From assembly GCA_016840165.1 (NCBI GenBank), contig JAEOSU010000037.1, positions 20,100 through 84,099 on the forward strand: a stretch of 64,000 bases of DNA, given 5' to 3'. This DNA comes from Promethearchaeota archaeon. GTDB taxonomy: Archaea; Asgardarchaeota; Lokiarchaeia; Sigyniarchaeales; SOKP01. Below, piece by piece: positions 25,383-45,451 of this stretch. The translations under genes were made by a program, and so were the position numbers. Each line of letters begins with the position of its first letter. Position 1 is the stretch's first letter. Below the pieces are notes generated by a model. The model saw nothing but the letters and a program-made list of their open reading frames with translations, was not told the DNA's origin and ran no database searches.

Positions 25383-26430
25383 TTTTTAGACTCTCATATT
25401 TTTCATGAATAATTCTAATTACATTTGGCATTATGTTAAATTTGATTTCTTTTTCTTTTTTAATTATCAATTCCAATATGCGATAGATTGTAAAATACTC
25501 AAAATCATCAATTTTTAATTGGAATTTTTTAAAATAATAATTTTGATAGATTCCTTCTAAGGACCATCTCAAATGTTTTTTATTTATATTAATAGGGATA
25601 TATAATTCTTTTAATTCTTTTATGGAGTTTAAGAACTTTTGAATTTCCGATATGAATTTATCGATATCATTAATCTCTAATAAAGCATCGATTTTTTCTT
25701 GGCTTAAAAATAAGTATTCTCTAATAAGTAGTTGCGATGTTAAATTCTTATCAAAATGATTAATTATTGCTCGTGATAAAATTCTCAAGTTATAAACTTC
25801 TGCTGAATAATCAATAAAAAGCGATATCATCGCTTTTTCTTTTTTATCATAAAAATGTTTTGTTAATATAAGATTTTCATAATATAATTTATCTAAAAAA
25901 GCCTCTAAAATAAAAATTTCGTTAGTATTTTTAAAATAGAGTATTCCCTCCCTTATGGGCTTGTTATAGCGCGTGTTTTTCATATAAAACTGAATTTCCT
26001 CTAAACTAGTGATCTCGAGCAAATCTTTAATAAAATCTGAACGCTCCAAATATTCTTCAACTAAATAATTAATCCTTTTAGATTTTTCTGATTTGCTAAT
26101 ACCGATTATTGATCCGAGTATTATTTGCTTAATGTTAGAGATTTCATACTTTAAAAGGTAGGCTTTTAAAAAGAGTTTCATATTATCCGGGGAAAAATAT
26201 AAAATCCTTCCTATTAATTTAATAAGGATATGAAAAAGAGCTTGTTCTATTTCCATAATATTATAATCCGAAATTTTGATTTCAGGATAATACGGAGAGA
26301 TAAATTCCATGAAATCCTTAATGCTATCAAATTTCTTTAACTGTGATAGGTTATTATCTTCAATAATTAATTTCTTAAGAAACTCTATCTTGATATAGGT
26401 ATAAACATAAGAGGGAATTACTATACTCGT
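25363..26430 (-). CDS. atpC: V/A-type ATPase subunit C (d); probable ACG start
   Basis: KYEISNIK, LEAFLDKLYY, YNLRILSR; frame open 40 codons above the ATG at 26310, up to an ACG preceded by GGTG, giving 355 aa. Confidence 0.85.
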   Translation of the reverse strand, partial: TSIVIPSYVYTYIKIEFLKKLIIEDNNLSQLKKFDSIKDFMEFISPYYPEIKISDYNIMEIEQALFHILIKLIGRILYFSPDNMKLFLKAYLLKYEISNIKQIILGSIIGISKSEKSKRINYLVEEYLERSDFIKDLLEITSLEEIQFYMKNTRYNKPIREGILYFKNTNEIFILEAFLDKLYYENLILTKHFYDKKEKAMISLFIDYSAEVYNLRILSRAIINHFDKNLTSQLLIREYLFLSQEKIDALLEINDIDKFISEIQKFLNSIKELKELYIPININKKHLRWSLEGIYQNYYFKKFQLKIDDFEYFTIYRILELIIKKEKEIKFNIMPNVIRIIHEKYESLKNGNENI

Positions 26431-33248: not shown

Positions 33249-34022
33249 GTGAAGAATTTTATTGGTATTGATATTGGATCCTTAGCAACGAAGATTGTTC
33301 TTATTAACGAGGGGAAATTATTGGATCATAAAACCGAACGATCCACCTATGATTTTAAAAGAGTTGGTCACAATCTATTTGATGATATATTAAAACAGCA
33401 CAATTTAGAGAGAAAGGATGTTTATGTAATGAGTACGGGTTATGGTCGTAATACAATCGATATTGCTGATGACAGAGTGACAGAAATTACAGCTCATGCG
33501 CGTGGAGCACAATATTTCTTTCCAGATGCTGCTTCAGTTATAGATATAGGCGGTCAGGATAGTAAAGCTATTGTAATGTCTAAGAAGACCGGAAGTGTTA
33601 TAGATTTTCAGATGAATGATAAATGCGCAGCAGGAACAGGCAGGTTTTTAGAAGTGATGGCACATGCTTTAGAAGTTCCGATTGATCAATTTGGAGTTTT
33701 AGCATTACAATCTAATAAACCAGCATCGATAAGTTCAACATGTACAGTGTTTGCAGAGAGCGAAGTTATTAGTTTATTTGCCCGGGGGGCTTCTAAACAA
33801 GATATTGCGAGCGGCATTCATAAATCAATAGCCCGTAGAGTAGCAGGGATGGCAAAAAGAATTGGTGTAGGCCCGAAATTAGTTTTTTGCGGTGGAGTTG
33901 CTAAAAATGATGCCGTTAAAAATTATTTAGAAGAGGAGCTTGGATTTGAAATCATTCGTCCTGAATATCCTCAACTCACCGGAGCAATAGGAGCCGCGAT
34001 CATTGCAGAAGAAAAAAAATAA
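33249..34022 (+). CDS. 2-hydroxyacyl-CoA dehydratase activator ATPase (HgdC/HadI/BcrAD-like)
   Basis: GIDIGS..TK, TGYGR, EITAHARG, DIGGQDSK, MNDKCAAGTGRFLE, CTVFAESEV, GGVAKN. Confidence 0.95.
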   Translation: MKNFIGIDIGSLATKIVLINEGKLLDHKTERSTYDFKRVGHNLFDDILKQHNLERKDVYVMSTGYGRNTIDIADDRVTEITAHARGAQYFFPDAASVIDIGGQDSKAIVMSKKTGSVIDFQMNDKCAAGTGRFLEVMAHALEVPIDQFGVLALQSNKPASISSTCTVFAESEVISLFARGASKQDIASGIHKSIARRVAGMAKRIGVGPKLVFCGGVAKNDAVKNYLEEELGFEIIRPEYPQLTGAIGAAIIAEEKK

Positions 34023-34097
34023 AGAGTAAGATACAATTTATAATTCTTAGCTCAATTGACTCTTTTTGATTGATTAACTATATATATTCCAATTAAA

Positions 34098-35240
34098 ATG
34101 CAAGCATTAGAGATTTTCGAGGAATTTTCTCTTTATTTAAAAGAGATGAAAAGCAAGGGGAAAAAAGTAATAGCATTTATCTCGCATGATAATATTCCTG
34201 AGGAATTAATAGACGCTGCCGGATTTATTCCATTACGGTTGATTTTCGCAGGAAATGATGAATTAATGGATGCGAGTCATGATTATTTACCCCCATCTAC
34301 CTGTGCTTTTGCGCAAACTTGTATCGGTCTTTTTGCTTTAAAACCTCGTCAATTTGATTTTTTAGATTTAATAGATTATTTTATCGTATCTAATCATTGT
34401 GTATCAGATATATGTGCTTCTGAAGTTATATGTAAGTATTTTAATATTCCTCGATTAAATTTTTACATCTCTTACATAAGAAATAGCAATAGTGAGAAAT
34501 ACTTTCGGTTAGAAATCTTGGAATTTAGAAAGAAATTAGAGGAAATTAAGAATTCAGTAATATCTGATGAGGCAATAATTGAAAGTATTAAGAAATACAA
34601 TGAATTCAGAAAATTCCTTGAAACTTTAAATAATTTAACTATTCAAGGAAGTCTAAAACTAAAACTCATGCAGAAGGCTTTTTTATTTGGACCTAAAATC
34701 ATCCCAGAACTAAAAGATTTTATCAATTCCAATAATAATTTAAGAGCACAATCGTCCAATTCGAAAGATCTCTTACTTACGGGATGTTCAATCTTCATGA
34801 ACGATATATTAATCGATTTAATCAAAGAAGGAGGAGGAAATATTATATTTTTTGATTCTTGGATTGGATCCAATTATTATTCGCAACAATTTGATAATAG
34901 TGCTTTTGAGAATACACAAAAACCAATTGATTTATTAGCCTCTCGATATATAAACAATATTTATGGCGATCATTGTGTGCCGAATTTTTTAGAAAATAAA
35001 ATCGCTCAAATTGAACAGATCTACAGGAAGTATAAGGAAAAAACGGGGAAAAGATTAGGAGTGATAAACCATATCATAAAATTTTGTGATCATATGTCTC
35101 TCATGTCATCCTTTTTTAAAAATAAATTACAAGAAAAGGGTATTCAAGTACTAAATATCGAACGTGATTATTCAAGAGCCAATCGAGGTCAATTGTCGAC
35201 TCGTATTGAAGCTTATTTGGAGATGGGTGATTCAGAATGA
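34098..35240 (+). CDS. 2-hydroxyacyl-CoA dehydratase subunit (HgdB/BcrC-like)
   Basis: PEELIDAAGFIP.R, TCAFAQ, KFCD, QLSTRIEAYLEM. Confidence 0.88.
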   Translation: MQALEIFEEFSLYLKEMKSKGKKVIAFISHDNIPEELIDAAGFIPLRLIFAGNDELMDASHDYLPPSTCAFAQTCIGLFALKPRQFDFLDLIDYFIVSNHCVSDICASEVICKYFNIPRLNFYISYIRNSNSEKYFRLEILEFRKKLEEIKNSVISDEAIIESIKKYNEFRKFLETLNNLTIQGSLKLKLMQKAFLFGPKIIPELKDFINSNNNLRAQSSNSKDLLLTGCSIFMNDILIDLIKEGGGNIIFFDSWIGSNYYSQQFDNSAFENTQKPIDLLASRYINNIYGDHCVPNFLENKIAQIEQIYRKYKEKTGKRLGVINHIIKFCDHMSLMSSFFKNKLQEKGIQVLNIERDYSRANRGQLSTRIEAYLEMGDSE

Positions 35241-36589
35241 GTTTAATTGCAGATGAAATCGTTAGATTCTCCTCAGTATTAAAAATAGCTTATAATTTCT
35301 TGACAGGAAGAGCATATTTAAAACGAAAAAAGTTTAGGGAAAAACAAAAATTAGTGTCAGTACCACTTCCGTTTTCGGATTTGCCTTTCGCTGCGGGAAC
35401 GGTACCAGTTTTTCCGATCAGGATGCATAATTTTAAGATAAATCAATATCTTACCTATTTAGGGACTGCTTCGAATATTTTTGGATGGAAAGGAGTATCG
35501 AATTTTTTAAGTTTTGTGAAGAACCTTGGGATTAGTGAAGTGAGTAAAATTGTTGATGATATTATCGAAGATGTCATCCGAGAAATTAATGAAAAATATA
35601 ACGAAATGTATGACATCGGTATAGAGGGGGGGATTTCAAGTGATTTCTGTTATGGCCTAAAAAGTCTTGTAGGTATGAATTTATCAAAAAGTCGCAATGT
35701 TGACGCGTATATGAATGTCACTATTCGATGCAGTGCCTTCAATAAATACTTAGAATCATTAAGTGCTATAAATAATGAACCGCGCCCAATTTGGATCGAT
35801 ATTCCTCCTAGAAATATAGGTAATGCTTTAGAATTATTAACAGATAACGTATCACACGCTTTAAGTGATTTTGAGCAGTTAACTGGGAATACCATATCAG
35901 ACAATATGTTAAGAAATCATTTTAATATCAGTAATCAAGTAAAGCGTGCTTACAACACCATTATTTATGATATTAGTGCCTCTGATTTTTATCCATGTAA
36001 TCCTGCAACTTTTAGCGAAATCATGTCTTTATTAAACATTACATTTATTGATTATAACTCTAATGCAACTCGTTATAGAGATAATATGAATTCGTTAGTG
36101 AATGAGATGCGAGAAAGGATCAGGAAACATATCGGAATGGATGTCTCTGATATGCCACGAATCTTTGTCACCCCTATCTTTGGTGGATGGGAACCAAAAA
36201 CTCATGACTATATTTATGAGTTAGGAGGAAGGGCACTTTACGCTGATTGGGGGCTATTAAAATTACTTGAAGAGTTACCTATTTCACCTAGTAATAATCC
36301 AGTAGAAGAATATGCACGATTTCTTTTGAATGCCACACAAACAGGAATTGGTTGTGATAATGACAAACTGACGGATTCATATCTTCGTATGGCAAAAGAA
36401 TTGAATGCTGATGGTGTAGTTTTTATTCAATTGTTTGGTTGTCATTCGATTTCTAATTGTTATCGAATGTTAAGAGACAAAGTAAGAAAAGAATTAGAGA
36501 TTCCTATAACCGCGATTACTTTTAATAAAATTGGAGAGAATATCGAACAAGTGAAAACTCGTATTGGGGCTTTTATGGAGATGTTTTAA
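35237..36589 (+). CDS. 2-hydroxyacyl-CoA dehydratase-family subunit (divergent)
   Basis: DFCYG, IRCS, ADGVVF...FGCHS, EQVKTRIGAFMEM; 4-nt overlap with the upstream subunit. Confidence 0.8.
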   Translation: MSLIADEIVRFSSVLKIAYNFLTGRAYLKRKKFREKQKLVSVPLPFSDLPFAAGTVPVFPIRMHNFKINQYLTYLGTASNIFGWKGVSNFLSFVKNLGISEVSKIVDDIIEDVIREINEKYNEMYDIGIEGGISSDFCYGLKSLVGMNLSKSRNVDAYMNVTIRCSAFNKYLESLSAINNEPRPIWIDIPPRNIGNALELLTDNVSHALSDFEQLTGNTISDNMLRNHFNISNQVKRAYNTIIYDISASDFYPCNPATFSEIMSLLNITFIDYNSNATRYRDNMNSLVNEMRERIRKHIGMDVSDMPRIFVTPIFGGWEPKTHDYIYELGGRALYADWGLLKLLEELPISPSNNPVEEYARFLLNATQTGIGCDNDKLTDSYLRMAKELNADGVVFIQLFGCHSISNCYRMLRDKVRKELEIPITAITFNKIGENIEQVKTRIGAFMEMF

Positions 36590-38858: not shown

Positions 38859-39026
38859 TTCTATCTATATTAAAACTTTGCAACAATTAAATATTTAGAA
38901 GATTTTTAAAATATTTTAAGATTTCAAAAGAAAAGGGTAGAGAGAAAGAAAAAAACATAAAATAATGATTTATTTTAATTATAATAGTAGTAATGAAAAT
39001 AATTGACTAAAAAAGAGGTGATAAAT

Positions 39027-39188
39027 ACGAGAAGAGGAGGAAAGGGAAGAGGGGGTGGTCCGTATGCTGCAGGGCCAGGGGGCAATTGTGTTTGCCCAAA
39101 TTGTGGTTATCAAAAGCCACATCAAACGGGTGTACCTTGTATGAATGAAGTATGCCCAAAATGTGGTACAAGAATGACTAGAAAATGA
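39027..39188 (+). CDS. Small Gly/Cys-rich metal-binding protein; probable ACG start
   Basis: GPGGNCVCPNCG...HQTGVPC...CPKCGTRMTR; GAGGTGA SD lies 5 nt before ACG at 39027 (in-frame TTG 39003 and GTG 39018 are alternatives). Confidence 0.8.
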   Translation, partial: TRRGGKGRGGGPYAAGPGGNCVCPNCGYQKPHQTGVPCMNEVCPKCGTRMTRK

Positions 39189-43922: not shown

Positions 43923-44095
43923 AATTGATAATAATATAACATCATTCTTATTTGAATTTGAGTAGAATATTCTTATTCTTTATAAAGACCGCTTATTTTT
44001 AAAAAACTGCTCAAAAATTTTATTACCTTACCATGATTAAATTAAAAATATATATATTCAGTTAAGAAGTTAAGAACGAAGGAGATGAAGAAGGA

Positions 44096-45451
44096 ACGAG
44101 TATCTATGCTGATGATGTTATTAGCTTTACTTCCCTTTTAAAAATGGCAAATAACTTCTTAACAGGTAGAGAATATTTACGAAGAAAAAAACTTCGAGAA
44201 AAAAAGAAGCTCATTTCAGTTGCTTTAGGTTTTCCTGATTTAATTTTTGCTGCTGGAGGTATACCTGTTTTTCCAATTAGATTAGAATCATTTACTGTTA
44301 ACCGATATTTAACTGCCCTAAATTCAGCGACAAGTGTTTTAGGATGGAGTTTAACCGCCAAATTTCTAGATTTTGCTCGACAATTTGATATATTAAAATT
44401 AGTGGATAAAATACTCGAGGAAGTAATTTCCTCAATCAATCAGAAATACAATCAAATGTACGACTTAGGGGTTCAAAATGGAGTTCCCTCTGATTTATGT
44501 TATGGAATCTATGCGCTTTATGGCATGCATAAGGAACGGAAGCAAATAGATGCCAATTTAAATTTTGCGATGAGGTGTGGAGAATGGAATAAAATCTCCG
44601 AATCGCTGAGATCGATTGTACCAAATCAAATTTGGGTAGATATACCTGCTTTAAATGCAGAAGATGAGAAAGAACGGTTATCGTTAATGGTGTCGAATGT
44701 CAATAAGGCTATTGATGAATTAGAATTGTTAACTGGGAACGTAATATCTGATAATAGCCTTAACAAGCAATTTCGGATAGGTAACCAGGTGAAACGTTTT
44801 TATAACACAATCTTATATGAAATTAGTGCGTCAAATTTTTATCCATGTAATCCTGCAACTTTTGCAGAAATCCTAGCTCTATTAACAATAACCTTTCAAG
44901 ATTATAATTCCAATGCTCAGCGGTTTTTAGAGAATATGAGCCATCTTGTAAAAGAGATGCGAGAACGTATAAAAAAAGGGATTGGAATGGATGTAACAAA
45001 TATGCCAAAATTACTTTTCTCTCCAATGTATAGCGGTTGGGAACCAGAAATCCATGAAATTATCTATAAATTGGGGGGACGTGTATTATATGCCGATTGG
45101 GAGATCTTAGGCTTACTTGAAGAAATTCCTGTATCAAAAAATTCAGATCCTATAGAAAGTTATTCCCGATATTTATTAGATGCATCTACTAAAGGTATAG
45201 GATGCGATAACGAAAACTTAACAAGTTCGTATCTCAAGGCTGCCAAAAACATGGAGGTTGATGGTCTTATTTTCAATCAGGTATATGGATGTCCTTCAAT
45301 GTCAAACATATATGAGAATCTTAAGAGAAAAGTTGAATCTGAATTAAAATTGCCTTCAATAGTAATAAAGTTCAAAAAGATAGGAGAAAATATTGAAGAA
45401 ATTGAAAATCGCTTGAAACCATTTATGGAGGAACTTCGAAGTATCGATTAA
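44096..45451 (+). CDS. 2-hydroxyacyl-CoA dehydratase-family subunit, paralog of 35237..36589; probable ACG start
   Basis: Shares NFLTGR.YL, PVFPIR, CYG, ISAS.FYPCNPATF.EI, LGGR.LYADW, GIGCDN with the paralog; alignment extends 16 codons above ATG 44144 to ACG 44096. Confidence 0.82.
   Translation, partial: TSIYADDVISFTSLLKMANNFLTGREYLRRKKLREKKKLISVALGFPDLIFAAGGIPVFPIRLESFTVNRYLTALNSATSVLGWSLTAKFLDFARQFDILKLVDKILEEVISSINQKYNQMYDLGVQNGVPSDLCYGIYALYGMHKERKQIDANLNFAMRCGEWNKISESLRSIVPNQIWVDIPALNAEDEKERLSLMVSNVNKAIDELELLTGNVISDNSLNKQFRIGNQVKRFYNTILYEISASNFYPCNPATFAEILALLTITFQDYNSNAQRFLENMSHLVKEMRERIKKGIGMDVTNMPKLLFSPMYSGWEPEIHEIIYKLGGRVLYADWEILGLLEEIPVSKNSDPIESYSRYLLDASTKGIGCDNENLTSSYLKAAKNMEVDGLIFNQVYGCPSMSNIYENLKRKVESELKLPSIVIKFKKIGENIEEIENRLKPFMEELRSID

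Follow-up and report, generated by a model that had tools for sequence, protein, structure and literature searches.

A conserved ACG triplet as the probable initiation codon of a 2-hydroxyacyl-CoA dehydratase subunit-like gene in Promethearchaeota

The window analyzed here, a 64,000-nucleotide stretch of contig JAEOSU010000037.1, belongs to a Promethearchaeota metagenome-assembled genome (MAG; designated G000) of 3.6 Mb, 31.6% GC and 99.7% completeness, whose congeners carry archaeal 16S rRNA. Two paralogous genes of the HGD-D family (PF06050) lie within it. One begins with an ordinary ATG and closes an operon in which it follows genes for a BcrAD/BadFG-type activator ATPase and an alpha-like HGD-D subunit. 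The other stands alone outside this operon, flanked by two minus-strand genes, and its reading frame continues upstream of the first canonical start codon to an ACG triplet that is the subject of this report. The features concerned, in positions of the window, are as follows.

35237-36589, plus strand: ATG-initiated paralog, closing the operon at 33249-36589 (activator / alpha-like / beta-like)
44080-44088, plus strand: Shine-Dalgarno-like box AGGAGATGA, with one central mismatch against the 16S rRNA 3' tail; contains the out-of-frame ATG 44085
44085-44141, plus strand: out-of-frame open reading frame of 18 codons from ATG 44085, ending with TAA 44139-44141
44096-44098, plus strand: ACG, proposed initiation codon, opposite the ATG of the paralog and of 16 orthologs
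44099-44143, plus strand: codons 2-16 (SIYADDVISFTSLLK), an N-terminal extension absent from public gene calls
44144-44146, plus strand: ATG (Met17), the first canonical start in the open reading frame listing, used by public annotations
44096-45451, plus strand: full coding sequence from the ACG, 451 codons and the stop (45449-45451)

The product of the ACG gene meets the criterion for membership of the HGD-D family, matching PF06050 with an E-value of 4.6e-30 and 105.8 bits against a curated cut-off of 28.4, and on the basis of its sequence it is a 2-hydroxyacyl-CoA dehydratase/benzoyl-CoA reductase subunit-like protein. It displays weak similarity to the beta subunit of 3-methylbenzoyl-CoA reductase, MbdO, and retains the Cys residues that it has in common with the paralog. 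Sequence matches in the PDB are confined to the C-terminal third of the protein, and the N-terminal half is poorly modelled in the predicted structure (pLDDT 27-60).

Read from 44096, the frame encodes T-SIYADDVISFTSLLK-M and is continuous with the open reading frame called at ATG 44144. Comparison of the ACG product with the paralog by BLASTP places residue 2 opposite residue 2, with 53% identity overall and no gap in the first 97 residues, such that ACG 44096 falls exactly opposite the ATG of the paralog. An earlier note on this DNA had proposed just such a gap-free alignment, and its description of the leader is likewise upheld: upstream of the ACG and in frame with it are ten sense codons (GAA GTT AAG AAC GAA GGA GAT GAA GAA GGA), none of them ATG, GTG or TTG, preceded by TAA at 44063-44065, and the neighboring ATG, at 44085, is out of frame and opens nothing beyond the 18-codon frame. 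The arrangement of the two genes varies among congeners. In genome G016 the ortholog (L018, G016:C5:53548-57885) lies directly downstream of the paralog, in tandem and with approximately 120 nt between them, while the copies in G000 are 7.5 kb apart.

To place the ACG in an evolutionary context, 35 distinct full-length orthologs and 4 paralogs were gathered from congeneric Promethearchaeota MAGs by whole-genome searches and a contig scan. The aligned first codon is ACG in 19 of the 35 orthologs and ATG in the other 16. A quick maximum-likelihood tree gathers all ACG genes into one clade of 20 (SH-aLRT 94), within which a single ATG gene, L040, is nested. The promoter, leader and first three codons of L040 resemble those of the ATG-type allele, so its ATG looks to have been acquired by recombination, a judgement made from sequence comparison. 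In this one nested lineage (L040, L021/L073), ATG occurs together with an ATG-clade leader, the apparent recombination breakpoint lying near codon 4. As the ACG orthologs form one clade, neither the count of 19/19 that recurs below nor the Shine-Dalgarno comparison rests upon independent samples.

Within the ACG clade, both the triplet and the codons that follow it are constrained. The third base of the triplet is G in 19/19 orthologs, whereas among 59 conserved four-fold codon columns just one is equally invariant; ACG makes up only 15% of threonine codons in ACG-type orthologs, and the conserved threonine at codon 12 is written with all four codons. These figures indicate that the triplet is conserved as ACG and not merely as a threonine codon. 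Over codons 2-16, the 19 ACG-type orthologs yield a pS of 0.60 and a pN of 0.057, and the resulting pN/pS of 0.09, compared with 0.17 for the remainder of the gene, indicates that these codons are translated in this frame. An in-frame stop lies 2-23 codons upstream of the ACG (4 in most orthologs), no ATG, GTG or TTG intervenes between that stop and the ACG in any of the 19, and the ACG is the sole near-cognate codon that all of them share in this region. The proposal of the earlier note that the 16 extra codons are still conserved is thus borne out, the comparison of selection across orthologs that it recommended having found constraint on codons 2-16 to be no weaker than on the remaining codons. 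Of the two outcomes that it held would refute the idea, stops or frameshifts in the extension are found in no relative, and an assembly error is excluded given that the same aligned codon is ACG in 19 distinct, independent assemblies, which can be ascribed neither to chance nor to sequencing error. Its further claim, that the extension is translated from the ACG, draws support from the codon constraint; neither the initiation event nor the N-terminal residue has been observed.

The leader of the ACG gene carries a sequence with the properties of a ribosome-binding site. Since 16S rRNA is not assembled in G000, the tail sequence was taken from six congeners, in which the 3' end reads ...CUGGAUCACCUCCU. 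The motif GAG-(A/T)-TG (GAG-N-TG) is present in 19/19 ACG orthologs, 15 to 9 nt upstream of the ACG, usually within the extended box GAGAUGAUCC, in which 9 of 10 positions can pair with the rRNA tail; in the variant that has TTG (GAGUUGGUUU), pairing is kept through G-U wobbles. The predicted duplex between box and anti-Shine-Dalgarno sequence amounts to -9.9 kcal/mol in G000 and to a mean of -10.1 in the ACG clade versus -7.1 in ATG orthologs (Mann-Whitney p 0.002, a value that overstates the evidence because the sequences compared are related). Aligned spacing between box and ACG is 5-6 nt, and 6 nt in G000, where Shine-Dalgarno-bearing ATG genes peak at 4-6 nt. Such boxes are uncommon in this genome, a Shine-Dalgarno 5-mer being found at 7% of first ATGs against a background of 1.2%. 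No conserved RNA structure was found around the ACG, the consensus comprising 3 pairs at -1.2 kcal/mol without covariation.

A dedicated initiator tRNA with a CGU anticodon was considered as a means of reading the ACG and was rejected. The single initiator tRNA of G000, located by motif search, has the standard CAU anticodon, and a pattern search of the anticodon arm in 41 congeners returned no CGU initiator, all 14 matches being CAT. With only CAU available, reading of the ACG would involve a C-A mismatch at its middle base. Introns in the initiator tRNA genes differ in place, lying after the anticodon loop in G000 (contig C49, near 11030, plus strand) and in the T-loop in G005 (L141:1469-1576). 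Detectable tRNAs in the 99.7% complete MAG number only 22; owing to introns, the majority of tRNAs in this genome escape both ARAGORN and the Rfam tRNA model.

The dehydratase-like gene is not the only one in this genome for which an ACG start can be considered. Three further cases are listed below, the first and third in positions of the window.

26428-26430, minus strand: ACG where homology places the start of atpC (subunit C of the A-type ATP synthase), a codon that is ACG in 26 of 30 congeners and ATG in 4
141-743 of L105 (contig C102 of G000), minus strand: hisB copy found in a genome-wide screen, with an ACG start one base after the stop of the upstream gene
39027-39029, plus strand: ACG in a small zinc-ribbon gene (39003-39188), where GAGGTGAT is followed by 4 nt and then the ACG

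The first canonical ATG of atpC, at 26310 on the minus strand, lies 40 codons inside the homologous region (26310-26430). The ACG is preceded by GGTG(A/T) in congeners, constraint on codons 2-40 is on a par with that on the remaining codons (0.33 vs. 0.36), and 0 of 9 conserved four-fold columns are invariant. Three separate changes between ACG and ATG, read as returns to ATG, are required by the atpC tree, and at precisely the position of codon 1 three genomes from another family within the order carry ATG. In hisB, GAGGTGAATTAAA is followed by ACG in three genomes, while the next relative has TTG there and ATG opens the orthologs whose leaders differ; across relatives, ACG, TTG and ATG are all met behind one and the same Shine-Dalgarno box and spacer; the first canonical start of the copy on C102 is 98 codons downstream of its ACG. 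G000 has a second, ATG-initiated hisB on contig C50, which suggests that C102 may come from a co-binned strain. Upstream of hisB on C102, a 376-codon open reading frame has an apparent CTG start behind GGAGG. The zinc-ribbon ACG is a weaker candidate: the Shine-Dalgarno box is preceded by an in-frame TTG and includes a GTG, and orthologs start with ATG-AAC or with TTG nearby.

Near-cognate codons other than ACG were encountered as well. A genome scan that took Shine-Dalgarno 6-mers as anchors was dominated by in-frame GGT-GAT matches within coding sequence. Behind a Shine-Dalgarno box, ATT is enriched genome-wide in G000 (26/214, p=3e-8), which suggests that near-cognate starts are in general use in this genome; CTG (3/21) and ACG (2/15, p=0.1) follow the same trend without reaching significance, the analysis being underpowered for ACG. 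In G000, dozens of long open reading frames reach their first canonical start only after 30 or more codons and carry ATT, ATA or CTG immediately after a strong GGTGA/GAGGT box. The open reading frame for the initiation factor aIF1 (SUI1; L148, G000:C49:34438-34653, minus strand) measures 113 codons from stop to stop, and its zinc knuckle is preceded in frame by neither ATG nor GTG nor TTG, ATA and ATT being the only near-cognate candidates.

In our assessment, ACG 44096 is probably a real start codon, used through Shine-Dalgarno-guided near-cognate initiation, kept across the clade and belonging to a small group of such starts in the genus; no protein or RNA data bear upon this proposal, which rests on comparative sequence analysis. 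The box (AGGAGATGA in G000, GAGAUGAUCC in most relatives) would pair with the 3' tail of 16S rRNA and thereby put the ACG in the P site at the spacing of ATG starts, where the ordinary CAU initiator tRNA is inferred to read it with a mismatch at the middle base. The first residue would accordingly be methionine, most likely removed before Ser2. On this reading ATG was replaced by ACG a single time, in the common ancestor of one clade of the Promethearchaeota genus, and the ACG has been retained since. The weak codon could plausibly reduce expression of this paralog relative to the operon copy, an inference for which there are no expression data. Selection for a weak start and near-neutrality are both possible reasons for the retention of the ACG, and the two are not separable here. 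The idea of selection against reversion to ATG was dropped: given that synonymous sites are near saturation, the reversions seen, one in this gene by apparent recombination and three in atpC, are about as many as near-neutral C-to-T change could produce.

Other readings of the locus need to be weighed against initiation at the ACG. Sequencing error or a decaying pseudogene would account for the missing ATG and for nothing else, and is virtually ruled out by the recurrence of the same ACG in 19 independent assemblies and by an intact reading frame evolving at a pN/pS of 0.17. The gene might instead start at ATG 44144, leaving the 16 upstream codons as the untranslated relic of an ancestral N-terminus. 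This is the first canonical start, it is the one used by every public annotation, and Met17 is kept in 19/19 ACG-type orthologs; it is nevertheless very unlikely in view of the codon-level constraint on codons 2-16 (pN/pS 0.09 at a pS of 0.60), the lack of a Shine-Dalgarno box 5' of 44144, and the presence of isoleucine at position 17 in three ATG-type orthologs and in the G000 paralog. A short minor isoform from Met17 is not excluded. Initiation at ATC 44102 (codon 3), or at another near-cognate codon nearby in G000, is likewise considered unlikely. ATC is a table-11 start, so that the full table-11 set would call a 449-aa open reading frame from 44102, AAGGA is found 6 nt upstream in G000, and ATT and ATA starts are common in that genome; yet the variability of codon 3 among ACG orthologs (ATC, ATT, ATA, CTA, TTA, GTA) shows that it is not a conserved alternative start, and neither the invariant third base of the ACG nor the conserved Ser2 would be explained.

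Two further possibilities remain. Translation could begin at the out-of-frame ATG 44085 (MKKE...) and shift into the main frame before or at the ACG, a notion favored by the presence of ATG or TTG at this position in 19/19 ACG orthologs and in none of the ATG orthologs except L019 (TTG). That triplet, however, is separated from the ACG by an offset of 11 nt in 18 orthologs but of 10 nt in L038, and the shift required would therefore differ; the frame in L006 reaches a TAA before the ACG; and there is neither a shared slippery sequence nor a Shine-Dalgarno box upstream of ATG 44085. A programmed frameshift or uORF from this ATG was rejected on the grounds of the inconsistent offsets, the L006 stop and the absent slippery motif, and any start there is highly improbable, the triplet being better understood as part of the pairing with the anti-Shine-Dalgarno sequence, in which the TTG variant takes part by G-U wobble. 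Finally, the transcript might be edited from C to U at 44097, turning ACG into AUG. In plant organelles, C-to-U RNA editing turns some ACG codons into AUG starts, and, as in the dehydratase gene, a conserved genomic ACG is found there where homologs have ATG; that editing needs machinery not known in archaea. Editing would explain the strict conservation of the ACG, third-base G included, equally well, and ACGAG is invariant in both the dehydratase and atpC sets. Against it, hisB reads ACG GAA, leaving the ACG sites without a common context, and there is no conserved RNA structure at the site. To our knowledge, C-to-U editing of mRNA is without precedent in archaea. In addition, database relatives of at least 84% identity are called at 435-436 aa, with no M-initiated full-length form (whether RNA-derived assemblies are among them is not known). 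Editing is not excluded in the absence of RNA data but is for these reasons considered improbable, and direct initiation at ACG 44096 remains the preferred reading.

So understood, the dehydratase gene invites comparison with known systems. Near-cognate ACG starts occur in eukaryotes and their viruses, examples being those of AAV VP2 and Sendai virus C'. These resemble the dehydratase gene in the codon itself, in its presumed reading by a methionine initiator tRNA with a middle-base mismatch, and in the combination of a weak start with a full-length product; they differ in that the eukaryotic codon is selected by scanning and Kozak context, whereas the prokaryotic gene appears to rely for its positioning on a Shine-Dalgarno box set at a fixed distance. 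Bacterial infC has an AUU start through which IF3 exerts autocontrol, and such Shine-Dalgarno-directed weak starts have in common with the dehydratase gene a box, a near-cognate codon and a likely low rate of initiation. Data for yeast CYC7 place ACG among the strongest non-AUG codons (PMC4705826). When all 64 codons were measured in E. coli, ACG fell in the class initiating at 0.1-1% of AUG, and ACG-initiated GFP carried an N-terminal methionine (10.1101/063800). ACG is not a natural conserved start in E. coli, while in the Asgard genus it is conserved across many species, including in a gene for an ATP synthase subunit. In archaea, GUG and UUG serve as alternative starts and initiation is less stringent than in eukaryotes (PMC4705826), and the reviews consulted give AUG, GUG and UUG as the only archaeal start codons. 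GUG and UUG entail a mismatch at the first base, the dehydratase ACG one at the second. ACG is absent from the start codons of table 11, and full-text literature searches returned no report of a natural archaeal ACG start.

A wider proposition is that this genus, and perhaps several archaeal lineages, possess a relaxed, Shine-Dalgarno-dependent system in which ACG, with the mismatch at the second position that typifies near-cognate starts in eukaryotes, would be a regular and stable start for housekeeping genes such as atpC and hisB, and which may be tuned by aIF1, itself encoded by a gene without a canonical start. This remains tentative and is judged less likely than not. Were it true, tolerance of ACG would predate the eukaryotes and the archaeal start-codon table would need revision. 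Whatever the reach of the phenomenon, the dehydratase, atpC and hisB genes offer natural mRNAs with which to probe the fidelity of archaeal aIF1 and aIF2. For the locus itself, initiation at the ACG implies a full-length stand-alone beta-like subunit, probably present at a low level relative to the operon-encoded paralog, as inferred in the absence of expression data.

Because ACG falls outside the accepted prokaryotic start codons, genes of this kind are truncated or given wrong starts by gene finders. ACG-type proteins in the databases measure 433-439 aa and cover 96% of the query, and approximately 70 of the best 120 database relatives are called 16 residues short. Calls made from canonical starts would cost atpC 40 residues and hisB 98, its catalytic motifs included. 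Public records that contain this Loki-type gene under the titles Candidatus Nanopelagicaceae bacterium, Odinarchaeota or Hermodarchaeota (L044, which is DATKTW010000061.1, as well as L048 and L054) look to be mis-binned or mislabelled.
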